From positions 4,264 to 68,263 of the forward strand of contig JBDRWI010000001.1 in the NCBI GenBank assembly GCA_039802265.1: 64,000 nt of DNA, read 5' to 3'. The translations under genes and the position numbers were made by a program. This document shows, piece after piece, positions 4,540 through 59,518 of this stretch (positions are counted from its first letter, which is position 1; the number at the start of each line of letters is the position of its first letter). This DNA comes from a candidate division WOR-3 bacterium (GTDB lineage Bacteria > Hydrothermota > Tepidihabitantia > SM23-42 > JAOAFX01). The notes beneath the pieces are model-generated. The model made no database searches, was not told the origin of the DNA, and saw nothing but the letters and a program-made list of their open reading frames with translations.

Positions 4540-4584
4540 ATTAATGATTCTAATTTGATTTGGAAAATCTACCAGGAGGTGGGT

Positions 4585-7971: not shown

Positions 7972-10900
7972 ATGAAATGTGTCATCTGTAATTCCGATAA
8001 AATCCCGCAAGCTGCCGAATTCTGTCCCAATTGTGGTACACAACTTAAAATTGAATCCACCAGAGATAAGGGCACCGAACGGCTAAAAATCCTTGGTGGT
8101 GAATCACGCTTCGTAACCCTGTTCTTTGTAGATTTTATTATTATGAACCCAGCGGAGGATAAAATAACCAAACAGAATATCATCTATCTGAGCGATTTGA
8201 TGGAAAAAGTCGCTGCGATTGTCAAAAAATACGATGGAACGGTAAATCGAATAATGCCCGATTACCGACTTCTCATAATATTCGGAGCACCCAAAGTCCA
8301 TACCGATGACCCGAATCGTGCCGTCCGGTGTGTATTAGAGATTAAGAAATATCTTTATGAAAGAAGACGATTAGAAGCGCCAATCACCAGGTTTAATATA
8401 AAAATTGGAATCAATTCCGGCTGGATTTTTTTTGGATATGTCCTTGAAAATCCGCCATTTTTGACTGTAATCGGTGATACGGTCAATATTGCAGCCCGTC
8501 TTGCTCAGATGAGTATGCCAGATCAAATCTTGATGAGCGAGAATACATATAATCTGCTGCCTGACTTGATTGTTGCTGAACACATCGGAATGACTTATGT
8601 AAGAGGTAGGTCCGGCTCTTTGGATGTCTATAATCTGATAGATATAAGATTTGAAACTCTGCAGATGCCCAAATGCCCATTCTGGGGACGGAAGGAGGAA
8701 ATGGCGCGATTGATTGCGCTTACCCAAAAAATCAAAGAGAATAGAATCAGCATTGGAATCATTACCGGACAGATGGGCATTGGTAAGACACGGTTGAAAG
8801 AGGAATTTGAAAATTTTCTGAGAGCGGATGGTTCGTTCCGCTTCATTGAAAGCCACTGTACAGTAGAAATGCAGACCCCCTATTATCCATTTAAATTGTT
8901 ATTTCGTGAGTATTTTAATTTGAAGGAAAGCGATAGCCGGGCAAATATCGCCGAGAAGATTGACCGCTTTGTCTCGGAAAACAACCTTGATCCACAGGAA
9001 ATAAAGGGAATAAAACATCTCTTTCTAACCGACCTGCAGCGGTTGTGGGGTGAAAATTTAATTTCAATCAATGAAGAGATATTTATCGCGGTTGGTAATC
9101 TGCTCAGATTTGAATGCAAAAAAAATCCCTTAGTAATTATCTTTGAAGAATTCAACCGCGCCGATTCAATGACGAAAAACCTTGTCGCATATTTAGCCGC
9201 GGAATTAGTTAATAACTCAATTATGTTTCTGCTGATCAATTACACCGGTGATTTATTCAAAAAAGACAACAATAATAATTTTGAAGAAATTAATCTCGGA
9301 CCGCTGAGTAAAGAGACAATAGCCAATCTGGTAAATTATTATCTCACCGATGCCGACCCCAATCTGATTGAATTTTTATATAAAACTACTGGCGGCAATC
9401 CACTATTCACCATTGAAACCATTAAAAATGTAAAACGAAGAAATATAATCAAAAAGGAAGCATCTGGAAGATGGTTATTGGACAGAGAGAAACACTTTAC
9501 CTTTCTTGACGACCTCTACAGTGTGGTAATGTCGGGACTTGATGCACTGGCTCCAGAATACCGCTTGATTATTGATTACGCCTCGGTCATCGGTTACAGC
9601 TTTAATTATCACATTCTTAAAGAAATATTAGAAGACGAAGAAAATCTATTAGAAAGATTGAACTATCTAAAAAATGAAGATTACATCATTCAATTCAAAG
9701 ATGATACAGACCCGATTTATATCTTTAGACACAACTTATTAAAAGATGCCGCATATACCACACTGCCACTGAAAAAGAGAAAAGAATTACACCGCCGGGT
9801 GGCTGTTCTATTGGAAAAATCTTATTCTGAGCAACTTTCCGAATATTACGAGACTATTGGATACCATTACCATGAAGCAGAAAATTATAAAAAAGCCGCT
9901 GAATACTTTAAAATGGCTGGTGACAAGGCAAAAAATCTCTATGCGATTGAACAGGCAATAAATTTTTATAACAATGTGCTAAAAATAGGCCGCGAATATA
10001 AAGAACAGATATCGCCAAATTTATTAAGACAGACTGAATTAAATCTGACCGACATCTATGAAATACTTGGTGATACCCAGAGAATGAAAGAAATTGCTGA
10101 AAGTGGACTCAGTGCAGCAGAAATAGAAAAAAACCAGAAAGAAATTCTTTTATTCAGCGAACGAAAGGCAATTTCACTTCTGATGTCCGGAGATTATAAG
10201 AGTGCTGAATCATTACTTCTTGAGTCGGTAGAAAACTGCCCAGCGGAATACGCCGATGTCCTGACCCAATTATATTCAGACCTCGGATTACTTTATGCCG
10301 AAAAATATGAATATGAAAAGAGCATCCTGAATTATAACCTGACCTGGAACACCGCCCGGACCTACGGTATTAAAGAAGGGGAAATAAGATGCCTTTTGAA
10401 TCTCTCCCAGTTACACACAAAGTTAGGTAATTATGAACTGGCATATGAATACTTGAATTACGGTCTGGACGAACTCATAACTGAAGAAAATCTACGCCCG
10501 AAGGCACAGTATAAATATAATTTGGGAATTCTGGATTATCAGGTCTGGAATCTAAACAAGGCGATAGAACAATTAACCGAGGCATTCAACATTGCCGAGC
10601 GGAGTAGCCATGAGATACAGATAAAGTCTGCCCTTGAACTTGCCCTTATTCATTCCCTGATGCAAAATTATGATGAGGCAGCAAGATTGGTTGAATATGT
10701 TGATAAAAAAATTACCCCCACAATCAGAGAGATTTTACTTTCCGAGATTAACCTCAAAAAGGCAATTTTTTACGAAAATAAAAAAGAGCGGGAACGGGTT
10801 GTCCCCTTTCTAACAAACGCCCTGAAATTAGCCCAGAAATATAATCAGCAAGAAACCATTGTTCACTGTCTACTACTGAAGGCAGACATAGATGAAATCA

Positions 10901-11791: not shown

Positions 11792-13969
11792 ATGGAAACA
11801 TCAGCACACCCTGAATTTTATCACGAATTCATAAAGCAGATCGGACTGGGTATAAATATCTCAAGGATCTATCCGAAGGGGCATCCTTCCCTGGAACCAG
11901 TAGTCCAAAGACTCAAGATATTGCTAAAAGAACTACCCTTAGAAAAGGAATCTATTTCCATTGTTGTAATCGAAGATATTCTGATGATAGAAGACAATAG
12001 ATTTGAAGCCAAAAAATTGCCAATCGTGAAGAGTCTGGTTGATCGCTTTACACAACTGGGTATCAAGAGTATTACCTTTGATGTCGATGCCACCGATGAG
12101 GATATAAAGGGATTCTTCCTTGCCATGGCATCAACCCCCGCCGAGATTTCGGATTACGGTGATATTGTCTCATTGTTGAGAACAAAGGGAGTATTGAAGG
12201 TTAAACTGAATAAATACCGGGTGGGTGTATTCTCTTCGGAGGAAGAGGTAAAGGAAATCAACTGGACCAACTTTCTTGAGTCAATTGCCCTTTCTCAAGA
12301 AAGCCAGAGTGAAGAAGAACGAATAAAACAGTTGGGCAGTTTTCTCGCCGGCGTCGGTGTTATCGGAAGTGAACCGGTTGAAACACAGACGAGTAAAGTA
12401 ATCGGCGGGCTCGAAAAGATTGCCTTGATGATTGCCGACCAGTATGGTGAAGAAAGATGGAATGAATATTCAATCATCTTTTCAAGAATCCTGGCAGTGC
12501 TTTCGCCCACCATCAAAAAGAATATCTTGAAGTATAAAACTGAAAACAAAAAACTTGCCACTCTTTTCAAGAGCCTCATACCCACGATGTCGGATGAAGA
12601 TATTATTGATATAATCGCAACCAAGGCTAAGGAAAAGAAGGATACAAGCGAGGATGAAATCATTGATATTTTAAAGAATGTTGCTGGTACCAGACTTCCC
12701 AGTATCCTCTCAACGGTGAGGGCCAACTTCCCCGAATTAAATTTTGAAAAAATTGTTTCACAACTTATGGCCGAACTGAAGACCATCAAAGGGACTGAGG
12801 TTGCCGATAAGTTTATGAGTAAGAATCTGGAAGCCGAAATGAGAAGTTTCTTCCCCCAACTAAGAGAAGCAGCCCCCGAAGAAAGGGTTAAGGCAATTGA
12901 AGGACTTTTGGCTTTCAGTAAAAAGTTATTTGATGCCAAAGATTATGAACTACTCCGCCTCCTCATTGACCGCCTCGATTCAATGTCCGATACAGAGGAA
13001 AATATCACCGTCTTTAAAAAAATTATGGAGGCAATTAAATTATTATATCTCAAATCAGAAGAATTAGGATTTGCTGATATCATTCAGTTTATTTCCAAAA
13101 AATTCTCACGGCATTTAATTCGTAAGGAAAAAGTCTTTCTTGATAAAAAGAATGTTGTTATCAAGATAATCGGCGATATAAGGGACCAGAACTACCTTGC
13201 CGAATTAGTATCTTTACTTTGGGACCCGGGAACCTTTGTTGAAGCACGCGAGGCACTGATTGCAATGTCAGACTTCTCACTGCCCATTTTGATTGACACC
13301 TTAAAAGAGACCGAGGATAAGAGTGTAAGATTAAAGATAATTGATGTGATACTCCGAATTGGAGAAAAGGCAATACCCCAAACTCTTAAACTTCTCTCCA
13401 GCGATGATTGGTTTGTTAAAAGAAATGGTTTATTTATCCTCGGTGAACTCAAGGCAAAAGATGCGGTGGATGAGATTGGTAGGTTGTTAGACAGCAAAGA
13501 AGAACAGGTACAGATTGAAGTCCTTACCACCCTCAGCAAGATAGGCACGGAAAAAACCAAGGAATATATAAAAAAGGGACTGGATAGCCAATTTCCTCAG
13601 GTTGTAATTGCTGCAATGAAAAATTTAACTAAAGAAGATGTAAAACCAAAATTACCCCAAATAATTCAACTATTAAAGCGGCGAAAAGGAACTCCCGATG
13701 AAAAAGAAGAAGCACTTAGAATTGGTCTAATTAATTTACTCGGAGAATTGGGTGATGATTCGGTCGTTGATAGGCTGATTGAAATATTAGATGAAAAGAT
13801 ATTATTTAAGAACGAATTGCTTTTACCCACCAAGGAGGCAGTTTTACGTGCCCTTGCCCAGATCAAAACTGATAAGGCATTAAGTGCGTTGAAACAGGCA
13901 ACAAACCATCGGGATGCCTTTGTCGCTACAACTGCCCGGGAGATTCTCAAGAGAATCAAACCGGGATAA
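11792..13969 (+). CDS. HEAT-repeat protein with uncharacterised N-terminal region
   Basis: The C-terminal third carries repeated HEAT/PBS-lyase-type units (WFVKRNGLFILGELKAKDAV, VQIEVLTTLSKIGTEK, PQVVIAAMKNL, RIGLINLLGELGDDSVV, KEAVLRALAQIKTDKAL). The N-terminal ~450 aa have no motif I can name. It starts 5 nt after the upstream stop, with no SD. Confidence 0.6.
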   Translation: METSAHPEFYHEFIKQIGLGINISRIYPKGHPSLEPVVQRLKILLKELPLEKESISIVVIEDILMIEDNRFEAKKLPIVKSLVDRFTQLGIKSITFDVDATDEDIKGFFLAMASTPAEISDYGDIVSLLRTKGVLKVKLNKYRVGVFSSEEEVKEINWTNFLESIALSQESQSEEERIKQLGSFLAGVGVIGSEPVETQTSKVIGGLEKIALMIADQYGEERWNEYSIIFSRILAVLSPTIKKNILKYKTENKKLATLFKSLIPTMSDEDIIDIIATKAKEKKDTSEDEIIDILKNVAGTRLPSILSTVRANFPELNFEKIVSQLMAELKTIKGTEVADKFMSKNLEAEMRSFFPQLREAAPEERVKAIEGLLAFSKKLFDAKDYELLRLLIDRLDSMSDTEENITVFKKIMEAIKLLYLKSEELGFADIIQFISKKFSRHLIRKEKVFLDKKNVVIKIIGDIRDQNYLAELVSLLWDPGTFVEAREALIAMSDFSLPILIDTLKETEDKSVRLKIIDVILRIGEKAIPQTLKLLSSDDWFVKRNGLFILGELKAKDAVDEIGRLLDSKEEQVQIEVLTTLSKIGTEKTKEYIKKGLDSQFPQVVIAAMKNLTKEDVKPKLPQIIQLLKRRKGTPDEKEEALRIGLINLLGELGDDSVVDRLIEILDEKILFKNELLLPTKEAVLRALAQIKTDKALSALKQATNHRDAFVATTAREILKRIKPG

Positions 13970-14031
13970 GACATATAGTTTTTCCAAAAAAATTTGCCTT
14001 CACACCATGAAGTATTTCTCTCTCCCCTTTT

Positions 14032-14067
14032 AAAAAACCCGGCCGCGGCCCGAAGGCCACGACCGGG
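14032..14067 (-). terminator. rho-independent terminator (minus strand)
   Basis: 13-bp GC-rich stem CCCGGUCGUGGCC / GGCCGCGGCCGGG (two G-U pairs on the minus-strand RNA, C-A mismatches on the plus strand), UUCG tetraloop, then U6. The U-tract exists only on the minus strand. Confidence 0.8.
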
Positions 14068-14108
14068 AGGGGAAAGATGTCTAATAATTAGACAACAGAT
14101 AAGTTAAT
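14032..14108 (-). ncRNA. candidate ~77-nt small RNA (own promoter, AU-rich 5' hairpin, C-rich linker, intrinsic terminator)
   Basis: On the minus strand, TTGACA-N16-TATAAT (14142-14115) is followed ~7 nt later by AUUAACUUAUCUGUUGUCUAAUUAUUAGACAUCUUUCCCCUCCCGGUCGUGGCCUUCGGGCCGCGGCCGGGUUUUUU. There is no AUG in the transcript. The 5' end is inferred from promoter geometry only. Confidence 0.55.
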
Positions 14109-14114
14109 AAGTTT

Positions 14115-14142
14115 ATTATAATTAAAAATTGAATAATGTCAA
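14115..14142 (-). promoter_or_regulatory. consensus sigma70-type promoter of the candidate sRNA
   Basis: Minus strand: TTGACA (14142-14137), 16-nt spacer, TATAAT (14120-14115). Both hexamers are perfect. Confidence 0.65.
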
Positions 14143-14156
14143 CGTTATTAAAATAG

Positions 14157-14185
14157 TTGACATTTAACTTATTTTGATTTATAAT
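14157..14185 (+). promoter_or_regulatory. consensus sigma70-type promoter of the small membrane protein gene
   Basis: TTGACA (14157-14162), 17-nt spacer, TATAAT (14180-14185). AAGGAG lies at 14191-14196 and the ATG at 14204. Confidence 0.7.
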
Positions 14186-14203
14186 TTCACAAGGAGCCTG
14201 AAT

Positions 14204-14356
14204 ATGAAGATTATTCTGATAATTATAATCCTGGCGGTACTTGCTTGGATTATTACCTTAGTAATCCAGTCGGCAGAAAAAAAGAGAAGGGAAGAGTATA
14301 TAAAACAGAAAATGGAAGAAAAGAAAAAGGAAGAAGAAAGGAGTTTTAGACCTTAA
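14204..14356 (+). CDS. 50-aa single-pass membrane peptide with Lys/Glu-rich tail
   Basis: MKIILIIIILAVLAWIITLVIQSAEKKRREEYIKQKMEEKKKEEERSFRP. Supported by a perfect promoter and a well-spaced AAGGAG. The track ORF start at 14174 was trimmed to the SD-supported ATG. The 3' end overlaps the convergent 14346 gene by 11 nt. Confidence 0.6.
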   Translation: MKIILIIIILAVLAWIITLVIQSAEKKRREEYIKQKMEEKKKEEERSFRP

Positions 14357-15209
14357 GATAGGCAATCAATTTATTCATATCATCAGGAATGGGTACGGAA
14401 AACTCTATCCATTTTTTAGTTTCTGGATGCAGCAAACCTATTTCTGATGAATGAAGCATCTGTCTGGGAAAGAAGATTTGTCTTTCCAAACTTTTCCAGT
14501 ATTTCTTATCTCCAACAATCGGATATCCGAGTTGAGCCATTTGAATTCTTATTTGATGGGTTCTTCCAGTTATTGGGAAAAATTCTAACAGAGTAGCATC
14601 TTTGAATTTTTCAACTACCCGATACCTTGTCGCAGCATACTCTTTCTTTCCTAACTTTCCTCTTAAAATTTCTGATTTTTTTTCAATCACACCATTAACA
14701 ATACCTATGTATTTCTTTTTTATAACTTGCCTTTTAAATTGCTCAATTAGATATTTTTTACTAATTCCATCTTTTGCAAAGATAACCACCCCGCTTGTCT
14801 CACGGTCAAGACGGTGCACTGGATAGACAATTTTTCCATTTTCTGATAATCTTTCTTCAATGGACCTTCCCGATTCAGAAGATTCTTTATTCGTAAGGAT
14901 AAATGGGGGTTTATTAACTACAATGAGATTACGGTCTTCATAAACTATTTCAATATAGCTAAGTTGCTTTAAATATTCAGTTCGGTCAATTAAAATGATA
15001 GAATCTCGGGTGCGAACCCTCTTGGAAGGAAATGTTATCTGACTTCCGTTAAGCAGAACAAATCCCCATTCTATAAGACTTCGCGCCTCCTTCCTTGATA
15101 TCTCAGCAATTACCCCCAGGACATAATCAATTCGCCTTGAATTTAGTTTATCAGGGACATCGTATTTTTTATAAGAAAATAAAGAGTTAATAAAATGCCC
15201 GAAATTCAC
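14346..15209 (-). CDS. RluA-family 23S rRNA pseudouridine synthase (RluD-like, S4 domain N-terminus)
   Basis: HRLDRETSGVVIFAKD catalytic-Asp motif, GRTHQIR, and an S4-like N-terminal segment (RIDYVLG...SRKEARSLI). GTG start. Confidence 0.85.
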   Translation of the reverse strand: MNFGHFINSLFSYKKYDVPDKLNSRRIDYVLGVIAEISRKEARSLIEWGFVLLNGSQITFPSKRVRTRDSIILIDRTEYLKQLSYIEIVYEDRNLIVVNKPPFILTNKESSESGRSIEERLSENGKIVYPVHRLDRETSGVVIFAKDGISKKYLIEQFKRQVIKKKYIGIVNGVIEKKSEILRGKLGKKEYAATRYRVVEKFKDATLLEFFPITGRTHQIRIQMAQLGYPIVGDKKYWKSLERQIFFPRQMLHSSEIGLLHPETKKWIEFSVPIPDDMNKLIAYLKV

Positions 15210-15215
15210 TTCTTT

Positions 15216-15243
15216 ATTTTATGTAAATCGACTGATTAGTCAA
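15216..15243 (-). promoter_or_regulatory. sigma70-type promoter of the pseudouridine synthase gene (leaderless geometry)
   Basis: Minus strand: TTGACT (15243-15238), 16-nt spacer, TAAAAT (15221-15216). Only 6 nt separate the -10 box from the GTG at 15209. Confidence 0.55.
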
Positions 15244-15261
15244 TACCGATTTATTGGAATA

Positions 15262-15288
15262 TTGATTTTTTAAGCATTTTTTTATAAT
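15262..15288 (+). promoter_or_regulatory. sigma70-type promoter of spoIID-like gene (leaderless geometry)
   Basis: TTGATT (15262-15267), 15-nt spacer (short), TATAAT (15283-15288). 7 nt separate the -10 box from ATG 15296, with no SD. Confidence 0.5.
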
Positions 15289-15295
15289 ATTATAG

Positions 15296-16402
15296 ATGAA
15301 CCGATTTTACGAAACCCAGACCTTATTATTTTTACTCCTTTTAACAAATTGCCTTCCATACATCGCAAAGAGAGAAAGAATTAAACAAATACGCATTGCT
15401 ATCCTGAGTGGGATTGATTCGGTTGTAGTAACTGGAATTAACCAGAAAGAATTCCTCCAAGATTATAAAATTTCAGTCAGTGATTCACTTCCTTTGTTCT
15501 TAAAAACAAAGGAAGGAAGGGTGATGGTGAATGGTAAACCATACCGCGGGAATCTTGAAATTAAAAATATAAATAATAAAATCTGGGTAATCAATGTAGT
15601 AGATATTGAAGACTATCTTAAAGGTGTTGTTCCCTGTGAAATTGGCAGGATAACAAAAGACTTGATGGAAGCAGCGAAGGCCCAAGCAATTGCTGCAAGA
15701 ACCTATGCCTATAGTCATATAAACCAATATGCTCAATTGGGCTTTGACTTATATGCCACAACCCGGGACCAGCTCTATGGCGGAATAAATGCCGAGGATG
15801 AATTGATTAGTACGGCAATTAAAAAAACCAGCGGATTTATTTTAACCTATCATGGACAACCAATCCAGGCAAAATATCATTCTACCTGCGGTGGCAGGAC
15901 CGCTGACTTCAATGATGCCTGGAGGGGCATCGGACCTCCTTACTTAAAAAGCGTAGTATGTGAATTTTGTCAGATTAGCCCCCACTACTACTGGGAGAAG
16001 AGAATGCACAAAGATGATTTCTTGAAAAATTTAAAGATAAATCTGCAGAAAATTGGAATCAAAATATCAGAAAAAGAGATAATCAGGGGATTCCGTTTCA
16101 AAAGAAATCCCAAAAGTGGACGGGTTATAAGTACAATCGTCCTGACCGATTCAGGCGAATATAAGGTTGACCTTTATAATATCCGGACCCTCTTTGGTAC
16201 ACCCGATGACCCAAATGGACTGTTGAAATCTAATTATTTCAGTCTTGAGGTGCAGAATGATAGTATTATCATTAAAGGCAGAGGCTACGGACATGGTGTA
16301 GGCATGTGTCAGTTCGGAGCAATTGGTATGGCAAAAAGGGGAAAGAATTATAAAGAAATTCTAATGCATTATTATCCTAACACAAAACTGGAGAGACATT
16401 AG
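15296..16402 (+). CDS. SpoIID/LytB-domain protein (peptidoglycan lytic transglycosylase-like)
   Basis: Motifs AQAIAARTYA, YHSTCGGRT and GHGVGMCQFGA. N-terminal signal-like segment. Confidence 0.85.
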   Translation: MNRFYETQTLLFLLLLTNCLPYIAKRERIKQIRIAILSGIDSVVVTGINQKEFLQDYKISVSDSLPLFLKTKEGRVMVNGKPYRGNLEIKNINNKIWVINVVDIEDYLKGVVPCEIGRITKDLMEAAKAQAIAARTYAYSHINQYAQLGFDLYATTRDQLYGGINAEDELISTAIKKTSGFILTYHGQPIQAKYHSTCGGRTADFNDAWRGIGPPYLKSVVCEFCQISPHYYWEKRMHKDDFLKNLKINLQKIGIKISEKEIIRGFRFKRNPKSGRVISTIVLTDSGEYKVDLYNIRTLFGTPDDPNGLLKSNYFSLEVQNDSIIIKGRGYGHGVGMCQFGAIGMAKRGKNYKEILMHYYPNTKLERH

Positions 16403-16503: not shown

Positions 16504-16527
16504 TTGTTCTTAAAAGAAGGAGGAACT

Positions 16528-24908: not shown

Positions 24909-25562
24909 CTACAGTTCAAACTTGGAATTTTTATTCATTAGTGAAAATGGAACATTACCCTTTATATATCTCTTGAACTTTCTCAGTGCCTTTGCCCGGT
25001 GGCTGATACGATTCTTTATTTTAAAGCCGAGCTCGGCAAAGGTTTTATTAAAACCTTTAGGAATGAATATCGGGTCGTAACCAAATCCATCCTTTCCTTT
25101 TGGTTCATATGCAATTCTTCCAATACACTCACCGGTAAAGACCTCATACCTTCCTGGCGCATAATAATATACGAAAACTACCTTGAATCTTGCCTGTCTG
25201 TTCTTTTTATTACCCAACTCGTTCAGAATTCTTTCAATCCGTTCCTGGTCGGTCTTACCATACCTTGAAGAATAAATTCCCGGTGCTCCATTTAGTTTAT
25301 CAATGAATAATCCAGAATCTTCAGCCAGACAGGGTTTCTTGATAATCTTATAAAAGAATTGTGCCTTTAAAAGACTATTTTCCAAAAGTGTCCTTCCAGT
25401 TTCGGCAATTCTGAGCTTAAAGGAATCGCTCAGTGTGAGACATTTAAAATCCTTACCCAGAATAGCTTTTATCTCTTCAATTTTGTGTTTGTTTCGGGTG
25501 GCAAGGAGAACAGTAAAGGGGGGCTTGCGCTGACAAGCTCCCCCTTTATTTTTTGGTTGCAT
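24909..25562 (-). CDS. rdgB: RdgB/HAM1 non-canonical purine NTP pyrophosphatase
   Basis: ATRNKHKIEE, EDSGLFIDKLNGAPGIYSSRY, GFGYDPIF and SHRAKAL. Trimmed to ATG 25562 because the track ORF (to 25667) overlaps the upstream SPOR gene by ~100 nt. Confidence 0.85.
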   Translation of the reverse strand: MQPKNKGGACQRKPPFTVLLATRNKHKIEEIKAILGKDFKCLTLSDSFKLRIAETGRTLLENSLLKAQFFYKIIKKPCLAEDSGLFIDKLNGAPGIYSSRYGKTDQERIERILNELGNKKNRQARFKVVFVYYYAPGRYEVFTGECIGRIAYEPKGKDGFGYDPIFIPKGFNKTFAELGFKIKNRISHRAKALRKFKRYIKGNVPFSLMNKNSKFEL

Positions 25563-25570
25563 AATAGAAT

Positions 25571-26212
25571 TTATGGACTTATCATCGTCTCTACCACAAA
25601 TGCCCCACGATAACCCAGACTCAATGCCCGATTCTTCAAGGTTTCTGCCTCTTCTTTGGTTAAACAATCACCAACCCGAACTTTATAATATGGAGGAACA
25701 TACTCTATATATACCTTACCCCCAAAAGCGGAACGGGCATCATCGGCAACCCTGGAGGCATTCTTCTGGGTTGAAGATGCAAATATCTGAACCCGAAAAC
25801 CATAGATGTTACCCGGGGGAGCACTGGGAGCTACAGTTGGAGCTGGAGGTGGGGTCGGTGCTGACGGCACAGTTGGTGCTGGTGGAATTGGTGGTGGGGC
25901 AACAGAAACCTCTTCAATAGGTGGTAGCACCGGTGCCTCTTCAACAACCGGCGGCGGAGGAATCACCGGCGCCTCTTCGGTTACCGGCGGGAGCACTGGT
26001 ATCTCTTCCGCTGGTGGTGGGGTAGTGGGTGTTACCTCAGCAGGTGGTGTGGTCGGTGCTGGAAAGACCGGCTCTTCGGAAACATTCTTTTCTTCTTCGC
26101 CAAATACAATTACCTCTTCAAGCCCTTCAGTCTTTACCACGGTCTTCTTGGGTGCACAGAATAGAAAGAAAAGTATGCACCCCATTACTATTATCTTGCT
26201 GAAATTAGACAT
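25571..26212 (-). CDS. SPOR-domain (peptidoglycan-binding) protein with long Pro-rich linker
   Basis: Signal/TM segment, then a Pro/Ala/Val/Thr low-complexity linker, then the C-terminal SPOR fold pattern YGFRVQIFASS...YYKVRVGDCLTKEEAETLKNRALSLGYRGAFVV. AAAGGAGG upstream. Confidence 0.8.
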   Translation of the reverse strand: MSNFSKIIVMGCILFFLFCAPKKTVVKTEGLEEVIVFGEEEKNVSEEPVFPAPTTPPAEVTPTTPPPAEEIPVLPPVTEEAPVIPPPPVVEEAPVLPPIEEVSVAPPPIPPAPTVPSAPTPPPAPTVAPSAPPGNIYGFRVQIFASSTQKNASRVADDARSAFGGKVYIEYVPPYYKVRVGDCLTKEEAETLKNRALSLGYRGAFVVETMISP

Positions 26213-29546: not shown

Positions 29547-30911
29547 CTATCTTATCGGCAGAAGTTTACCGGTCCTTCTTCCTGCCCAGGCACCCGCATA
29601 ATTCAGATTTGAATAAAAGGCTATGGAACTCGCTATCGGATCCCGTGTGCGTAGATAAGTTACTATTGCCTTATGTAATATCTCATCCCAGGAGTAAACC
29701 TGACGATGGATATCTTGCATAATAGAAGTCAAATCCTTACTACTTATCTTCCTTGGTTTATAGGTCAGCTCTGCCACATCAAAATGGTCCCAGTCTCTGG
29801 GGTAATCAGTGTAAAGTAAACGGCCTTCTTTATAAAGACGTTCAAACAGACGCGTTCCGGGCAGAGGTGTAAGATAGGTTATCTGCATTACATCTATATC
29901 ACTTTCAAGCAGATAACGGGCACGCCGGTAAATTATATCCTCTGTATCGCTATCAAAACCAAATATGAAACTACCGACAATGGCAATCCCTGCACGGTGA
30001 ATACGGTCAAATGCCTTTTTATAAAAATCTATCCCCCTTTTTAGATTCAATCTCTTATTTGCCTCAATGAGTGCCTCTGTTTCCCTGGCTTCCAAACCCA
30101 TAATCACCATCTTACACCCGGATCTTGAAGCCCAATAAAGAACCTCTTCATCATCGGCAAAATTCAAAGATGCCTGACAGATCCACCACTTATTCAATTT
30201 ACGATTTACCATTTCTTTAAAGATTGCGATTGCCTCATCTCGGGAATCCGAACCGTATCCAATGATATTGTCATCAATAAAAAAAATAAATCTCTTTTTT
30301 ATGTTTATAAGCTCGTCGATAACTTTATCCAAGGGACGACGGCGATATTTTTTACCATAGTAAGCAGGAACGGAACAGAAGTCACAATCCATCGGACATC
30401 CCCTTGAAGTCTGTACTGAACCGAAGAGATAATCTTTATGAAAGAGGTCATGTCGGGGATGAGGAATATCCCTTCCATCAATCAACTCACCATGATAAAT
30501 CCCTTTAACCCCACCGCCTTTAAAATCGTAAATGATTTTATTCCAAATTGATTCAACCTCGCCTATTACCACTGCATCAACATATCTCAATGCCTCTTCA
30601 GGACAGATTGTAGCATGCATACCACCCATCACTACCGGCACGCTCCGTTGCCGATAGATTGCGGAAATTTCATAGGCGCGATTGGCTGAGGCGGTATAGG
30701 CAGTAATTCCAACCAAATCTGCATCTTCAAAGAAAAAAGGATTGAAATTTTCATCAATCAATTTTATCTCCCAATCGTCAGGAGTTAATGCCGCAATTAT
30801 ACCCAGTGCCAGCGGCGGAAATCGTGAGGTAAGATTGGCAGTAAAACCACGCCGCTTAGGATTTACCGGATTAATCAAAACCAATCTGTGTCTTTTGGGG
30901 AGCATCTTCAA
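29547..30911 (-). CDS. B12-binding-domain radical SAM protein
   Basis: Cobalamin-binding-like N-domain, then the CxxxCxxC motif [15 protein letters not shown]. The start is either TTG 30911 or ATG 30905. Confidence 0.8.
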
Positions 30912-36904: not shown

Positions 36905-37414
36905 ATGATTCAGATATACACTGGAAACGGAAAAGGAAAGACGACCGCTGCGCTTGGTCTTGCCCTGCGCGCCATCGGACATAACAAAAAGGTAATAATG
37001 ATTCAGTTTATGAAGGGCAAGATCAACTATGGTGAATTGAAATCCGCCAGACTCTTAAAGAATTTTAAGATTGAGCAATACGGCCGGCCGGACTTTGTTG
37101 ACAAAGACCATCCTGCCAGGATCGATATTGAACTTGCAAGAAAGGGATTTGAACGGGCAAAAGAGGTAATTAAGGGCAAGAAATACGATATCGTGATCCT
37201 GGATGAGTTGAATGTGGCGGTTGATTACGGATTGATTCCTGTCACAGAAGTTATTGAACTGTTCAAGAAGACACCCAAGAAGATTGAACTTATCATTACC
37301 GGTCGTTATATGCCTGAAGAATTTAAAAATTATGCAGATTTGATAAGTGAGGTGATGGAGGTCAAACACTACTTTCAAAAAGGAACAAAGGCGAGGAAGG
37401 GAATTGAATATTGA
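36905..37414 (+). CDS. cobO: cob(I)yrinic acid a,c-diamide adenosyltransferase (CobO/BtuR type)
   Basis: IQIYTGNGKGKTTAALGLALRAIGH P-loop, VILDELN, and the C-terminal KGIEY. Confidence 0.85.
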   Translation: MIQIYTGNGKGKTTAALGLALRAIGHNKKVIMIQFMKGKINYGELKSARLLKNFKIEQYGRPDFVDKDHPARIDIELARKGFERAKEVIKGKKYDIVILDELNVAVDYGLIPVTEVIELFKKTPKKIELIITGRYMPEEFKNYADLISEVMEVKHYFQKGTKARKGIEY

Positions 37415-37438
37415 CATTAAAGAGAATTTTATTATAAT
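37411..37438 (+). promoter_or_regulatory. sigma70-type promoter upstream of rpoZ-coaBC
   Basis: TTGACA (37411-37416, overlapping the cobO stop), 16-nt spacer, TATAAT (37433-37438). A ~160-nt leader precedes the rpoZ ATG. Confidence 0.6.
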
Positions 37439-37605
37439 ATAATTCGGTAAGTTTTTACCAGAAATTGTAGGGTGGCTGCATAAAAATTAATGGCAAGGTT
37501 AAAAATTGCCAAGAAATCAAAGAGGAACCAATTGGAACAGTTTTGGGAAAATCTAAATGATTCCGATTTTTAGTTATTTAGGTATTTGAGAGAGCAAGGA
37601 GGTAT

Positions 37606-37791
37606 ATGTTCTTTCCGATTGAGAAGATTTGGGAACATTATAAAAATAAATATAAAGCAATAAATATTGGTGCATTGTATTCGCGAAAGTTAAAAGATGA
37701 ACAGTCGCAGGGACTTGGAGATAAAGACATCAATCCGATAAAAGAGTCTTTAATAAAACTTTCGCTGGGGAAGATAAAGGCAAAAGAATGA
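37606..37791 (+). CDS. rpoZ: DNA-directed RNA polymerase subunit omega (probable)
   Basis: 61 aa. NKYKAINIGALYSRKL aligns with the (S/N)(K/R)Y..v..aa.RAr core of omega, and NPIKESLIKLSLGKIK with the kp...Al.Ei..Gki segment. It sits directly upstream of coaBC, a common rpoZ position. AAGGAGG upstream. Confidence 0.6.
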   Translation: MFFPIEKIWEHYKNKYKAINIGALYSRKLKDEQSQGLGDKDINPIKESLIKLSLGKIKAKE

Positions 37792-45592: not shown

Positions 45593-48500
45593 ATGCATTC
45601 ATATAAAAAGCCCCTGTTATTAACAGTAGTCATGCTGAGCATCGTCTGGGCAGGTCCTTCAACTAAAAAGCAAGTAAGTGAGCCTGAAATAACATTACTC
45701 AGGCCAATGGAACTTGAATTAAGAACCCCTGCCCCGGTCTGGGATACAAATCGGGTCTGGCCCGGTGCCACTGCAAACCTCACAAGAAAAGTTGCGATTG
45801 GGAAGTATTTCAAGGGCGCATTGGATGACACCATCCGTCTGGTAACGGTCCAATCCGGTGGTACAAGGAATTTAGTCATTGCTACTGATACAATGAGCTC
45901 AAGTTTTGTAAAAAATGGCTTCCGAATTGAGACACCCTATGCCTTTGCCAGTGGTAGCACCCCCCATGCAGTTGCGGTTGGTGATGTGGATGGTGATGAG
46001 TATATTGATATACTGGCAGCCCAGTCTGCCACACCATACCGGCTATTCTGGTTTGAATGGGACACTGGTGCACTTAACTGGGTTGTGCGCGATTCATTGA
46101 CTGTAAATAATGCAATCAATGACATTACATTCGGTGATGGCGACAACAATGCAACAACCAGGGACTTCTACATCAATATCGCCCAGACCTCACCAAGTGC
46201 GGCAATTATGAGAATTTTCTGGACCGGCACTGCCTGGGATACCTTAAGGATTCTGCTCAGCGGCGGTGTCTCTTCACGGGGTGTTGCGGTTGGTGATATC
46301 CGACCAGAACTTGCCGGAAACGAAGTCTATGCAGTTGGTAGTTCAAGGATCTGGCAGGTCTATTTCAATGGTGTATCCTGGGATACCGCCACAATCACCA
46401 GTGGGGTAAGCGGTTCTTATGATGTGGTTGTGGGTGATGTAAATCCGGTAAATTCGGGAAATGAACTCTGCGTCGTCCATGGCTCAACATCCTATCAGGT
46501 ATCAATCTGGAACTGGACCGGTGCAAACTGGTCAGGAATCCTCTGGGCATTCACATCAACCTGGGGAACATCGGATAATACACTTGAAATTGGTGATGTC
46601 CTGAAGGAAAATCCTGGTAATGAACTGGTCTTGATGAGTGGTGCCAGTACAACTGCACAGCCCAGGGTCTTCTGGTATGCACCGAGTGGCAATGCCTGGG
46701 TGAGCACCTTACCCAAGTCAGTTGGTTCACAGAGTGACTATGGGGTGGCAATCGGTGATATAAATAGATTCCGCACATTCAATTCAGAATTTGTCCTTTC
46801 CGGTGGTGGCTCACTCGTTGAAGTAGAAGAGCACGACTTCGTTGATGACATTGGTACCTACTGGATTAGAATGAAAAATCCAACCGCAATCATAAACCTC
46901 CCTGACACAATCACTGCGGTAATCTTCAATGCTGGTTCAAATCCCAAATCAAACTTTAATGTTGGCTATCGCTTCAAGAACAGTCCATTAACTGGCTCTT
47001 TCATCTATACTGGCACGCTCAATCCCGGTGCAATAGATAGTATAAAATTTCCTGTCACGCTTGATTTTCTGGGAATGGATTCGCTATATGTATTTACCAG
47101 TCTTGCTGGGGATGCCTGGATATTGAATGATACAACAAGACTCCACCTTGAGGTATATGACGAAACCACAAAAGTTGCATCAACCTTCAATAATACTGCA
47201 TTTCCACCTGCCAATGCCACAATCTCACCAATGATAAATACACCCGATACCTGGTGGCGGACAATCCTGTCCGGTTCATACAACTGGGCAAGATATACCT
47301 CCGGTACCAATCCCACCTGCTCACCATATGAAGGCTATGGGATGGCTGGTTATCCATCTTATAATGCATCTTCTGGCTCCCAGGCAAGGTTACGCACCCA
47401 TCGGTTTAATATTGGTCCAACTCCTAAAAAGGTGATGCTCAGATTCTATATGTATCACGACCCGGGTTATTCCACAAATTCCGACTCCGTAATTATTGAA
47501 TTTTCTTATAACGATACAACATACAATCGGGTTGCTGGATTCCATCGCTATAATGCGACTGCTGGCTGGTATTTGCATGATGTGGAAATTGGCGACTTTC
47601 CAGCAAATAAGGACCTCTATATTGGATTCAAGGCAAACAGTGGCTATGGCAATAATATGTTCATTGACTCAGCAAGGGTATTTATTACCACACCAACCGC
47701 ACCAGTGGTTGATGCGGGAATCCAGAACATTACACCATTTGCCCCACCGATATTTGTTGGTGAGACACTCACCGTTCAGGTTCTGGTCCGTAATTATGGT
47801 CTGCAGACCCTTACTTCAACCCCGGTCTTTTATACCCTTGGTGGTGCGGATACGGTCTGGGAGAACTGGACCGGCTCACTGGAGATAAATGAAACTGCCC
47901 TTTACACATTCACCACGAATTTTATTCCAACAACTGCCGGTGAAGAAACCCTCTATGCCGGAACGAAATTGACCGGTGACCAAAATCCCGCAAATGATGT
48001 AGCAAGTTTGGTTTTTCTCGTCTGTCCTGAATACCATACCTTACCTTATACCAAGAACTTTGATGAGGCGTGGACAAATTCAACAAACCCACCCTTCTGT
48101 GGCTGGACAATTGTTGATGGTGGTACCCAATCACCACCGGTGATAGACAATAATGACTGGCATCGTTATGTAAGCAGTTCTCCCGCAAGAACAGTTGCCC
48201 GAGTCTACTACTCACCTGTTGAATGGACCGATGACTGGCTCATCTCACCGAGGTTTGATTGTTCTCAATTGGGATATTATACACTCTCATACTGGCACTG
48301 GTATGATGACTACACAACAAATTCCCCTGATTCGGGAAGAGTTCTTCTGAGCACCGACGGTGGCGCAAACTGGCAGACCGTTGCAATCTATTCCAATGCC
48401 GATGACTCCGGTTATAAGTCAATTGATGTCAGTTCCCTGGCAATGGGTCATAATAATGTAAAGATTGCCTTCCATTATGTGGCATATAATGAATGGCGCT

Positions 48501-50287
48501 GGTATATTGATGACTTTTTATTTGACTTTGCGCCGGATACAATTCCACCGACAATCACCTTTGTTCAAGAGCCCCAGAATACCTATCAGACCGGTCCCTA
48601 TATTGTCCGGGCAAGAATCAACGACATCACTGGAATTGGGGCGGATTCACTCTATTATATTGTAAATGATGTAATTACTGCCATTCCCCATACTGCCATC
48701 TCAGGCGATACATTCACATTTGAAATCCCCGGACAGACACCAGGAACAGAAGTTGAATACTTCGTCATTGCCCGTGATAATCTCGCAAACAGGGCATATA
48801 CCAGCACACATAGATTCTGGGTTCTATCACCACTGGCTCCCACTGACCTCGTTGTTACTGGTCAAGCTGATTCCACAGTCCGGCTTGACTGGTTACCACC
48901 GGCTGAGGAAATTTCTTATTATAGTGGCGTCAACTACTACTGGTATGGTTGGCTTGCTGGTGACGCAATTGCTACTCAATATACGCCCCAGTATTACCCA
49001 TGCAAATTAGAAGCAGCTGCCTTATTGTTCTACCAGTATTCGGATACAATAGAGTTCCATATCTGGGCAGATGATGGAAATGGTAATCCGGGAACAAGCC
49101 TCTTTGTTGATACAATCATAATCTCCCAGCTCTATCCCAATTTTGAGGTCATTGACCTATCCCAGGCGAATATTACAATAAATTCAGGCAGTTTCCATGT
49201 TGGCTTTATATGGCTCGGTGATGATACTCCTTATCCAATGTCTGATAATGGTTCAAATACTACACGCAGCAAATATTATGATGGTACAGACTGGTATCCA
49301 GCAGGTTATGACTGGGTGATGTCAGCTTATGTTTCATATCTCCCCGGGGCAAAAAGAACGGTCGGTCAACCAAAACTCTTGGCTTCTGGTACTAAAGTAT
49401 CTTTAAGAAAGTTGCACAGGAAACCGATAAGCGATAAAGAAAATTTCTCAAGTAACCTTTCGGCAGAAATACTCGGTATCTCCAACTTCTCAATTGAACG
49501 CGGCACGACTCAAGGTGGACCTTATACCCAGATTGGAACAACCACCAGCAGTTTCTTTATTGATACAACAGTTGTGAATGAAAACCGATACTACTATGTT
49601 GTTAAGGCAATCTATACCCAGCCCGATACTGTTTCTTATTACTCAAATGAAGTGAATATTGGCGTTGATTTTGCTGGTCCACTCTATAATAATACAACCT
49701 TTGACTCAATGGCAGCTGGACCCTGGGTTGTCTCAACCGAAATCACCGACTGGATTGGTCTTGCCTATGACTCCCTTGCCTACCGCACCGATGGTGGTTC
49801 ATTCTCTTATATTACAAGTGACAGTATTGCCGGCGATATCTACTACTACACCATCCCTGACTTCCCAGCGGGAACACTCATTGAATTCTACCTCTTTAGC
49901 CAGGACACATCATGGTGGCAGAATATAGGTAGAGACCCGGCAAGCGGTTATTATGCATTTACCTCCCATACCGGTATTGCGGATTCCAAGACCGCTAAAC
50001 CAATCCCCAGGTTTGTATTCTTAAATCAGTGCCAGCCCAATCCATTTGATAGAACAACCCGGATAAACTACGGAATTCCGAAGCAGATGCATGTAAATAT
50101 CTCTATCTACAATGCGATTGGACAGTTGACAAAGACCTTGATTGATGGCGAGTTGGAACCCGGTTATTACTCAATCCTCTGGGATGGCAGAGACCAGAAG
50201 GGCAGACAACTGGCAAATGGTATTTACTTTGTGCGCTTGTCTACTCCAGATAAGAAATTCATAAAGAAGGCGGTCTTACTCCACTGA
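45593..50287 (+). CDS. 1564-aa secreted multidomain surface protein (FG-GAP/VCBS-like propeller, CARDB-like, choice-of-anchor-J/MAM-like, FN3-like) with T9SS CTD
   Basis: N-terminal blades with GD(V/I)...GNE(L/V) spacing (GDVDGDEYIDIL, GDIRPELAGNEVY, GDVNPVNSGNELC, GDVLKENPGNELV, GDINRFRTFNSEF). DDWLISPRF...LLSTDGGANW (choice-of-anchor-J-like). PLAPTDLVVTG...VRLDWLPP (FN3-like). C-terminus QCQPNPF...VNISIYNAIGQL...GIYFVRLST is a T9SS CTD. Confidence 0.7.
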   Translation: MHSYKKPLLLTVVMLSIVWAGPSTKKQVSEPEITLLRPMELELRTPAPVWDTNRVWPGATANLTRKVAIGKYFKGALDDTIRLVTVQSGGTRNLVIATDTMSSSFVKNGFRIETPYAFASGSTPHAVAVGDVDGDEYIDILAAQSATPYRLFWFEWDTGALNWVVRDSLTVNNAINDITFGDGDNNATTRDFYINIAQTSPSAAIMRIFWTGTAWDTLRILLSGGVSSRGVAVGDIRPELAGNEVYAVGSSRIWQVYFNGVSWDTATITSGVSGSYDVVVGDVNPVNSGNELCVVHGSTSYQVSIWNWTGANWSGILWAFTSTWGTSDNTLEIGDVLKENPGNELVLMSGASTTAQPRVFWYAPSGNAWVSTLPKSVGSQSDYGVAIGDINRFRTFNSEFVLSGGGSLVEVEEHDFVDDIGTYWIRMKNPTAIINLPDTITAVIFNAGSNPKSNFNVGYRFKNSPLTGSFIYTGTLNPGAIDSIKFPVTLDFLGMDSLYVFTSLAGDAWILNDTTRLHLEVYDETTKVASTFNNTAFPPANATISPMINTPDTWWRTILSGSYNWARYTSGTNPTCSPYEGYGMAGYPSYNASSGSQARLRTHRFNIGPTPKKVMLRFYMYHDPGYSTNSDSVIIEFSYNDTTYNRVAGFHRYNATAGWYLHDVEIGDFPANKDLYIGFKANSGYGNNMFIDSARVFITTPTAPVVDAGIQNITPFAPPIFVGETLTVQVLVRNYGLQTLTSTPVFYTLGGADTVWENWTGSLEINETALYTFTTNFIPTTAGEETLYAGTKLTGDQNPANDVASLVFLVCPEYHTLPYTKNFDEAWTNSTNPPFCGWTIVDGGTQSPPVIDNNDWHRYVSSSPARTVARVYYSPVEWTDDWLISPRFDCSQLGYYTLSYWHWYDDYTTNSPDSGRVLLSTDGGANWQTVAIYSNADDSGYKSIDVSSLAMGHNNVKIAFHYVAYNEWRWYIDDFLFDFAPDTIPPTITFVQEPQNTYQTGPYIVRARINDITGIGADSLYYIVNDVITAIPHTAISGDTFTFEIPGQTPGTEVEYFVIARDNLANRAYTSTHRFWVLSPLAPTDLVVTGQADSTVRLDWLPPAEEISYYSGVNYYWYGWLAGDAIATQYTPQYYPCKLEAAALLFYQYSDTIEFHIWADDGNGNPGTSLFVDTIIISQLYPNFEVIDLSQANITINSGSFHVGFIWLGDDTPYPMSDNGSNTTRSKYYDGTDWYPAGYDWVMSAYVSYLPGAKRTVGQPKLLASGTKVSLRKLHRKPISDKENFSSNLSAEILGISNFSIERGTTQGGPYTQIGTTTSSFFIDTTVVNENRYYYVVKAIYTQPDTVSYYSNEVNIGVDFAGPLYNNTTFDSMAAGPWVVSTEITDWIGLAYDSLAYRTDGGSFSYITSDSIAGDIYYYTIPDFPAGTLIEFYLFSQDTSWWQNIGRDPASGYYAFTSHTGIADSKTAKPIPRFVFLNQCQPNPFDRTTRINYGIPKQMHVNISIYNAIGQLTKTLIDGELEPGYYSILWDGRDQKGRQLANGIYFVRLSTPDKKFIKKAVLLH

Positions 50288-50305: not shown

Positions 50306-50340
50306 GGGAGGGGGGAATATATTCCCCCCTCCCTTTTATT
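50306..50340 (+). terminator. strong rho-independent terminator after the giant gene
   Basis: Perfect palindrome GGGAGGGGGGAA-UAUA-UUCCCCCCUCCC (12 bp), flanked by A4 upstream and UUUUAUU downstream. Confidence 0.85.
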
Positions 50341-58460: not shown

Positions 58461-59518
58461 CAACCCTTCTTTGAAATCTGCAGAATCATACCCACCGAGA
58501 ATAGATTGGAACATAATGCCCAACCACCGTACGAGACAAAGGGCAAGGGAATACCGGTTGCCGGAAGAAGTCCAAGGCTCACCCCCACATGGATTAAAAA
58601 TATTAAAAATATCACCGCATTTAGCCCCAGAACAATCATCCGTGGATATTCGTCAACCACTCCATTCGCAATAGCAATACCCCTTAAATAAACCTCCCAG
58701 TAAAGGATAAAAAATATTGCACTGCCAATAAAACCAGTCTCCTCAGCAATGTGGGCAAAAATGAAATCATTATGAATTCGGGGCAGAAATAAGAACTTCT
58801 GTAATCCTGCCCCTAAGCCCCGTCCGAACAGACCGCCGGAACCGATCGCAACCAGCGACTGCTGAACCTGATAACCCGGCTGGCTTATGAAACCGAGAAA
58901 TCTTTCACGAATATGGGGAAGAAATAAGAACGCCAAAAGGAAAAGGAGTAAGCCAGTAATGATTACCGGCGTCAAAAATTTAATCTTTATCTCTCCGTAG
59001 ATCAACATTATAACCAGTGCCAAAAAGGAAATTATCGCCACTGAAATTGATGGCTGGATTGCCACCAGGATAACCAAAGAAAGGGGAAAGACAATTGCCA
59101 GAAGAAGACCTTTTGGTCTGTTTAATACATCTGGGTGGGTAGCAAAGAGATTGGCAAGAAAAAGGACAATCCACACCCGGACAAATTCCGAAATCTGAAG
59201 ACCAAATGTGGCAATGGGAATACTTCGCCGGGCACCATAGACAAATCTGCCGAAGACAAGGGTAAGGATGAGCAAGACCACCATAAGTATGTATGCAGGA
59301 AAAAGAAATCTTCTAATTCTTTCGTAAGGCAGGAAGAAACCCAAAAAGAAGAAACCCAGACCAATCGCAACCCGCTTGAGATGGCCGAAAAGGTAATATG
59401 TGGTATCTTCTCCACTCCTCAGTGCCTGATAATAACTTGAGGAAAAGACAAAGACCGTGCCGAGAATAAGAAGAATCAAGGTAACAAAGGCATACGTGCG
59501 ATCAACGCTGGACTGCAT
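58460..59518 (-). CDS. ftsW: SEDS-family peptidoglycan glycosyltransferase FtsW
   Basis: About 10 TM helices, with PSEFVRV-like (QISEFVRVW), HNDFIFA and LPATGIPLPFVSYGG motifs. ATG 59518 is preferred (GGGAGG 9 nt upstream) over the track start at 59572. Confidence 0.85.
   Translation of the reverse strand: MQSSVDRTYAFVTLILLILGTVFVFSSSYYQALRSGEDTTYYLFGHLKRVAIGLGFFFLGFFLPYERIRRFLFPAYILMVVLLILTLVFGRFVYGARRSIPIATFGLQISEFVRVWIVLFLANLFATHPDVLNRPKGLLLAIVFPLSLVILVAIQPSISVAIISFLALVIMLIYGEIKIKFLTPVIITGLLLFLLAFLFLPHIRERFLGFISQPGYQVQQSLVAIGSGGLFGRGLGAGLQKFLFLPRIHNDFIFAHIAEETGFIGSAIFFILYWEVYLRGIAIANGVVDEYPRMIVLGLNAVIFLIFLIHVGVSLGLLPATGIPLPFVSYGGWALCSNLFSVGMILQISKKG

Follow-up and report, generated by a model that had tools for sequence, protein, structure and literature searches.

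The subject of this analysis is a 64,000-nucleotide (nt) stretch of genomic DNA, hereafter the window, whose host was assigned to candidate division WOR-3 from the flanking proteins encoded within these 64 kb. We focused on a candidate small RNA (sRNA) unit that sits, read on the minus strand, in the spacer between the gene of a HEAT-repeat protein and a small open reading frame (ORF) for a 50-amino-acid (aa) membrane protein (Table 1). The small ORF, which was also called by gene finders, has an AAGGAG Shine–Dalgarno (SD) sequence and encodes an N-terminal transmembrane helix followed by a KRRREE...EEKKK tail. A perfect plus-strand promoter, back to back with that of the candidate sRNA, is its predicted driver. 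The genome is compact, and the unit is placed between convergent and divergent genes. From the end of its terminator to the stop codon of the HEAT-repeat-protein gene (13969) there are 69 nt, and no minus-strand gene lies downstream of the candidate RNA.

Table 1. Features of the candidate sRNA unit, its neighbors and related loci (window coordinates, except for the four homologues in the last rows)
Feature	Position	Strand	Remarks
-35 hexamer TTGACA	14142..14137	-	half of the 12/12 consensus match
-10 hexamer TATAAT	14120..14115	-	16-nt spacer from -35; other half of the 12/12 match
Predicted transcription start A14108	14108	-	7th base past the -10 box
5' AU-rich hairpin GUCUAA-UUA-UUAGAC	14093..14079	-	weak, about -3 kcal/mol
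Unpaired linker AUCUUUCCCCU	14078..14068	-	predicted unpaired probability ~1.0 in the 77-nt RNA
Intrinsic terminator hairpin, C(UUCG)G loop	14067..14038	-	13 bp (11 G-C, 2 G-U), -28.9 kcal/mol
U6 tract	14037..14032	-	predicted 3' end of the ~77-nt RNA
AGGGGAGAGA	14028..14019	-	10/10 complementary (one G-U) to linker UCUUUCCCCU (14068..14077)
Weak hairpin CUUCA-UGGUG-UGAAG, then GCAAA and U7	14012..13986	-	ends before the stop codon of the HEAT-repeat-protein gene (13969)
HEAT-repeat-protein gene	11792..13969	+	Pfam-supported; last gene of a cyclase operon
Divergent perfect promoter TTGACA-N17-TATAAT	14157..14185	+	12/12; before the small ORF, back to back with the sRNA promoter
50-aa membrane-protein gene	14204..14356	+	convergent with the RluA-family gene, overlapping its 3' end
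RluA-family pseudouridine synthase gene	14346..15209	-	convergent with the 50-aa-protein gene
12/12 promoter	4512	+	before gene at 4555
12/12 promoter	16476	+	before gene at 16504
12/12 promoter	30948	-	before gene 29547..30911
12/12 promoter	37411	+	before ORF at 37606
Small membrane-protein homologue, L001	2657..2806	-	
Small membrane-protein homologue, L023	3337..3483	-	
Small membrane-protein homologue, L024	3355..3501	-	
Small membrane-protein homologue, L026	3340..3486	-	

The promoter of the candidate unit matches the sigma-70-type consensus (TTGACA and TATAAT, 16–18 nt apart) at all 12 positions of its two hexamers, with a spacer of 16 nt, exactly as an earlier reading of this DNA from its letters (the original prediction) had described it. 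Perfect matches of the form TTGACA-N16/17-TATAAT occur six times in the window (4512, 14157, 16476 and 37411 on the plus strand; 14142 and 30948 on the minus strand); the expectation from a first-order Markov model is 0.04, so that they are enriched 150-fold. Each of the other five immediately precedes a gene and points toward it, and a 16-nt spacer predominates among the 11/12 and 12/12 matches. Judged by these motifs, the WOR-3 genome sampled here uses textbook sigma-70 consensus promoters with unusual fidelity and high specificity. Transcription is predicted to start at A14108, which gives the same spacing as in window genes that appear to be leaderless (TATAAT, 6–9 nt, ATG).

Several further observations concern promoters and starts of this type. 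Gene starts at 7972, 15296, 30990 and 50389 on the plus strand and at 52434 on the minus strand follow TATAAT or TATCAT after 6–9 nt, lack an SD sequence and apparently belong to leaderless mRNAs; other genes in the window carry strong AGGAGG sites. At a related WOR-3 locus (L010, 5186..5298), a tRNA-Pro(TGG) gene stands just after the HEAT-protein gene and immediately behind a consensus promoter, which indicates that such promoters drive stable-RNA genes in WOR-3. Downstream of the perfect plus-strand promoter within 37411..37791 come a ~160-nt leader and an ORF of 61 aa (37606..37791) with no Pfam match, the stop codon of which overlaps the ATG of a coaBC-like gene (ATGA). Finally, a perfect 9-nt inverted repeat, TTAACTTAT, is found at 14099..14107, corresponding to positions +2 to +10 of the candidate RNA, and at 14164..14172, between the two hexamers of the divergent promoter of the small ORF; the two copies may be paired operators or, in DNA this rich in A and T, may match by chance.

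The candidate RNA ends in a predicted intrinsic terminator, a GC-rich hairpin followed by a U-tract on the transcribed strand. The AU-rich hairpin, the 13-bp UUCG-capped stem and the U6 tract are all present on the minus strand at the positions originally assigned to them. In a hairpin census of the 64 kb, this terminator is the strongest hairpin followed by a T-run (−28.9 kcal/mol), the next intergenic one reaching −20.3 kcal/mol, and canonical terminators are rare in this genome according to the window census. The terminator begins 41 nt past the predicted start; by our own simple geometric arithmetic, the chance of finding it at most 100 nt downstream of one of the six 12/12 promoters, on the same strand, is about 0.005. 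The whole RNA of 77–78 nt has a minimum free energy of −35.1 kcal/mol (z = −5.7 against dinucleotide shuffles).

The structure also has a clear polarity. The U-tract exists on the minus strand only, as had been claimed, and the plus-strand version of the hairpin contains two A–C mismatches and is weaker (−20.0 versus −28.9 kcal/mol). A third G–U pair, located in an extension of the stem described below, likewise becomes an A–C mismatch on the plus strand. Because its G–U pairs turn into A–C mismatches on the opposite strand, the structure appears tuned for a minus-strand RNA. As a separate observation, a strong GC hairpin (−21.6 kcal/mol) with a T6 run is located at 25515..25554 on the plus strand, between two minus-strand genes encoding a SPOR-domain-like protein (25571..26212) and a HAM1/RdgB-like protein (24909..~25500), so that its clean U-tract lies on the strand antisense to both.

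The candidate RNA shows no credible coding potential, in line with the original prediction: it contains no AUG, and its sole ORF is a 34-codon GUG frame without an SD sequence that begins inside the terminator stem. A cmscan comparison of the whole window with Rfam 15, one of the checks proposed with the prediction, gave no family match at gathering thresholds. In a permissive search of 13800..14500 all hits were far below threshold, the best being RUF1 with 28 bits against a threshold of 70. A resemblance of the stem sequence GGTCGTGG to the T-arm region of the L010 tRNA-Pro was dismissed, as it extends over only an 8-mer in the opposite orientation. Elsewhere in the window, our crude gene map leaves 611 nt (58524..59134) without an ORF of at least 70 aa; this region resembles minus-strand DNA coding for a membrane protein, and the gap possibly reflects a frameshift or an ORF-calling gap.

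Between the two hairpins lies the linker UCUUUCCCCU, which occupies positions 32–41 of the RNA and is exposed, with a predicted unpaired probability of ~1.0. The unpaired stretch had originally been given as CCCCUCCC; its UCUUUCCCCU part is accessible as described, whereas the last CCC forms the base of the terminator stem and is not. Together with C14079 and the CCC of the stem, the linker reads CAUCUUUCCCCUCCC, which can be recognized directly from the sequence as the exact complement of GGGAGG-GGAAAG-AUG, a model initiation region for this genome. Genes in the window typically carry AGGAGG or GGGAGG with 4–6 nt before the ATG, and the complement of the linker has the same form. We therefore describe the linker as anti-TIR, meaning complementary to a translation-initiation region (TIR). 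The sequence complementary to the linker on the plus strand (14065..14092) reads GGGAGG-GGAAAG-ATG TCT AAT AAT TAG, an ideal ribosome-binding site with a four-codon mini-ORF toward the 3' end of the HEAT-protein operon; this is probably a mere mirror image of the anti-TIR sequence.

A second complementarity, absent from the original description, connects the linker with the sequence beyond the terminator. Directly past the terminator and U6A4 lies AGGGGAGAGA (14028..14019), which pairs with the linker over its entire length. In a read-through RNA, the terminator stem would be extended to 23 bp with a 9-nt bulge, yielding −54.7 kcal/mol (z = −7.1). Shuffled or random flanks form a helix of at least this length in ~2% of cases (p about 0.02). 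According to this fold, AGGGGAGAGA would mask the linker seed in any read-through RNA. The repeat has three possible readings: a self-masked second isoform, a relic of an SD-sequestering leader, or chance. Either of the first two would supply a rival reason for the C-richness of the linker. The weak hairpin with its U7 tract that follows at 14012..13986 is a possible back-up stop for read-through.

Given these features, we consider the following mechanism. The sigma-70-type consensus promoter would start transcription near A14108, and the UUCG-capped terminator would release an RNA of ~77 nt at the U6 tract, composed of a weak 5' hairpin, a single-stranded pyrimidine linker of 10–11 nt and the terminator. 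The linker CAUCUUUCCCCU(CCC), as the complement of SD, spacer and AUG, would base-pair with mRNAs, and this pairing would occlude the translation-initiation regions of SD-led mRNAs, so that their translation would be repressed. What can be read from the DNA itself is the promoter and terminator, the lack of an ORF and the predicted accessibility of the linker. Since 12/12 promoters number six in the window where 0.04 would be expected, the remaining five stand in front of genes, and the terminator is the strongest of the window, transcription from this promoter and accumulation of a discrete ~77-nt RNA are likely. The trans-acting anti-TIR mechanism is our best single guess, put forward tentatively; both it and any particular target are speculative. 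A broader version appears quite improbable to us, namely that an abundant, constitutive anti-TIR RNA, mimicking the anti-SD and anti-AUG recognition of the ribosome, tunes SD-led versus leaderless translation globally, with the AGGGGAGAGA-masked read-through isoform as its off-switch. If true, this would give WOR-3, an uncultivated phylum, its first regulatory sRNA.

To place the unit in a comparative context, we used RluA- and HEAT-protein relatives in GTDB genomes, a metagenome scan and a 5.8-billion-protein database. The 50-aa protein is conserved as a protein of 48–50 aa in L001, L023, L024 and L026, where its gene always converges with an RluA-family gene, overlapping the 3' end of the latter by 4–11 nt, behind a promoter that is always near-consensus. 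This small membrane protein belongs to no Pfam family, a word-index protein search found nothing, and the 5.8-billion-protein search with it gave no candidates. None of the four genomes has any such hairpin next to this convergent pair, which argues that the hairpin is not an ancestral RluA terminator. Comparison of synteny around the RluA-family gene in GTDB genomes yielded a single useful relative, L001. There, the similarity covers the small ORF and continues through its promoter as far as the −35 box, beyond which unrelated DNA and a different gene follow. The metagenome scan with the RluA alignment returned only relatives of ~30% identity, no paralogues emerged when the unit was compared by BLAST with the window and with all loci, and plasmid and phage collections contained no match. 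As far as can be told from these comparisons, the candidate RNA unit is species-specific.

Several of these and other results weigh against the proposed anti-TIR sRNA. The only other copies of the unit are in three assemblies, found by exact-protein look-up, in which the spacer is identical and 4–7 single-nucleotide polymorphisms per 6–8 kb (at most 0.1%) occur elsewhere; such near-identical strains are uninformative for conservation. The nearest relative, L001, whose RluA protein is 66% identical, lacks the unit at the syntenic site, and four HEAT-protein homologues from WOR-3 (55–62% identical), among them the one at L010 with the tRNA-Pro gene behind it, are followed by unrelated DNA. Neither the metagenome scan nor the 5.8-billion-protein database contained relatives between 66 and 100% identity. 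A covariance model run over 121 kb of WOR-3 DNA found no paralogue or homologue, and a GTDB pattern scan for the linker, the UUCG hairpin and GGGTTTTT gave one chance match, in a gammaproteobacterial coding region. The comparison with related genomes that had been proposed as a check thus recovered the spacer only from near-identical strains and found the unit missing from L001 and from the loci of the HEAT homologues.

The proposed target prediction covered 54 start regions in the window. Linker duplexes of −10 kcal/mol or below form with 28% of start regions versus 13% of intragenic windows, a weak trend that is not significant (p = 0.058), while the 5' part of the RNA pairs with the start regions no better than shuffled sRNAs do. 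The best target, the mraY start region with −15.6 kcal/mol, is unremarkable for 54 trials. Linker energies correlate with generic 16S anti-SD pairing (r = 0.75), suggesting that the linker recognizes SD sequences generically. In addition, the exposed part measures no more than 10 nt, the terminator stem takes up half of the CCCCUCCC motif, and the linker is perfectly complementary to the sequence just past the U-tract, so that its composition may reflect the long inverted repeat rather than a seed. The original suggestion of a C-rich anti-SD seed that represses SD-led genes is plausible and gains slightly from the exact complementarity to SD, 6 nt and AUG, with the adjacent CAU included, and from the analogy to streptococcal csRNAs discussed below, while the pairing statistics show no significant preference. 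The other occurrence of the motif that it had pointed to, GGGAGGGG at 50306, is nothing more than an unrelated terminator stem of ordinary type that follows gene 45593..50287.

Among the rival explanations, one places the function in the terminator rather than in the RNA. The terminator would act as an insulator against minus-strand transcription, arising both around the divergent promoter and by read-through of RluA, that would otherwise run antisense into the operon ending with the HEAT gene, and the 77-nt RNA would be a functionless by-product. Its position in a compact genome, flanked by convergent and divergent genes and 69 nt ahead of the HEAT stop codon, would suit this role, as would the fail-safe-like second hairpin with U7, the lack of visible conservation and the lack of an identifiable target. 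We nevertheless consider it unlikely, given that chance would place 0.04 promoters of the 12/12 class in a window and that the remaining five drive genes: a purposeless promoter would more simply be lost than insulated, and relatives with the same RluA/small-ORF layout do without the terminator. Alternatively, the RNA could act in cis on the HEAT operon, whose read-through would be fully complementary to it; a duplex cleaved by RNase III, or head-on collision of polymerases, would then set the 3' end of the operon and shield the small-ORF promoter. Here the geometry guarantees a complementary partner, no plus-strand terminator-like site was found within 12500..15500, including the region after the HEAT-repeat-protein gene, and the plus-strand hairpin is mismatched and has no U-tract. 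However, canonical terminators are rare genome-wide, so their absence after this gene is not special and Rho-type termination may act; relatives of the HEAT protein differ downstream and have no such unit, and the read-through itself is assumed. This arrangement seems rather unlikely to us.

If the promoter match were silent, the hairpin might only terminate transcripts of the RluA-family gene (14346..15209), a scenario that the original prediction had itself named as refuting it; the hairpin is indeed the first terminator downstream of that gene on the minus strand. Yet it lies 280 nt beyond the RluA stop codon, with an opposing gene and its own perfect promoter in between, the RluA orthologues in L001, L023, L024 and L026 have no such hairpin, and promoters that match the consensus this well show high specificity in the window; we regard this explanation as improbable. 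The inverted repeat could instead mark a relic or conditional 5' leader, an attenuator in which the SD-like GGGGAGAGAG is sequestered by the linker in the read-through RNA and the downstream gene has been lost or reduced to AUG-GUG-UGA. Such an origin would fit the 10/10 pairing of the linker with AGGGGAGAGA in a helix that stacks on the terminator (chance ~0.02), the AUG 9 nt past the purine run, and the G–U pairs, one in the extension and two in the terminator stem, that favor the minus-strand RNA. It would also fit the loss of synteny on either side in relatives, as might follow from a rearrangement. Against it, no antiterminator alternative is possible because the 5' part is almost devoid of G, no ORF follows (a 102-codon minus-strand frame is antisense to the Pfam-supported HEAT gene and has no SD sequence), and Rfam gave no match. 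A leader of this type is decidedly improbable. We also considered a type I toxin–antitoxin pair in which the 50-aa hydrophobic protein is the toxin and the RNA the antitoxin, as in tisB/istR-1 or zorO/orzO, prompted by a small hydrophobic ORF divergent from a small RNA with strong promoters back to back. This option was rejected as scarcely credible: the two transcripts do not overlap, their complementarity is at chance level (−19.4 kcal/mol between the RNA and the small-ORF mRNA, with 24% of shuffles equally good), and the protein is conserved and syntenic in four other WOR-3 genomes without a divergent RNA unit.

Weighing these readings, we return to a discrete, probably transcribed RNA with a tentative anti-TIR role. 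The original assignment as an independent non-coding RNA gene is backed by the promoter class, the strongest terminator of the window, the absence of an ORF and the absence of a downstream gene; on the other side, all copies come from near-identical strains and the nearest relative lacks the unit. On present sequence evidence, the unit appears to be a credible, ordinary orphan intergenic sRNA candidate of a very common kind, unconserved and with no target standing out. Our literature search for small RNAs in WOR-3 returned nothing relevant, and a verified example would provide a first handle on post-transcriptional regulation in this group. The architecture is unusually clean and minimal, combining a perfect promoter, 77 nt and an ideal terminator, and the consensus promoters and apparently many leaderless mRNAs of this genome should be useful for annotating such metagenome-assembled genomes.

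Among known systems, the closest parallel in architecture is provided by the CiaR-dependent csRNAs of Streptococcus. In these experimentally verified RNAs, an unpaired anti-SD/anti-AUG stretch lies between two stem-loops; their promoters are very strong, and they act by blocking the initiation of translation (PMC3091779). The candidate RNA has the defining feature of this functional class in its sequence, an unpaired complement of SD and start codon between two stem-loops (PMC3091779), and it likewise stands behind a very strong, consensus promoter. It differs in that it belongs to another phylum, is single-copy whereas the csRNAs form a multi-copy family, and is known from sequence alone. Its promoter is a plain TTGACA/TATAAT promoter with a canonical −35 box rather than one dependent on a response regulator, and 14115..14200 contains no TTTAAG repeat of the kind that forms the CiaR box. 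Nor does the candidate match any Rfam family by sequence or covariance model, and we do not assign it to the csRNA family.

Other comparisons concern the linker, the genomic arrangement and the terminator. RsaE/RoxS and LhrC-type sRNAs of Firmicutes pair with G-rich SD regions through unpaired CCCC or UCCC motifs and end in a Rho-independent terminator; each has at least two C-rich motifs, which mostly lie in loops, and their conservation reaches beyond the genus. The candidate RNA shares with them a C-rich unpaired motif and a Rho-independent terminator, but its single linker motif is half buried in a stem, and it is unconserved and has no Rfam match. In IstR-1/tisB, OrzO/zorO and OhsC/shoB, a small RNA is divergent from the gene of a small hydrophobic protein, an arrangement also seen here; unlike in those systems, there is no significant RNA–mRNA complementarity, and relatives keep the small protein without the RNA. 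Lastly, the 3' part of the unit resembles canonical C(UUCG)G intrinsic terminators in its GC-rich 13-bp stem, UUCG loop and U6 tail, while differing from them in what precedes it, which is not a coding gene but its own predicted start 41 nt upstream, behind a perfect promoter.

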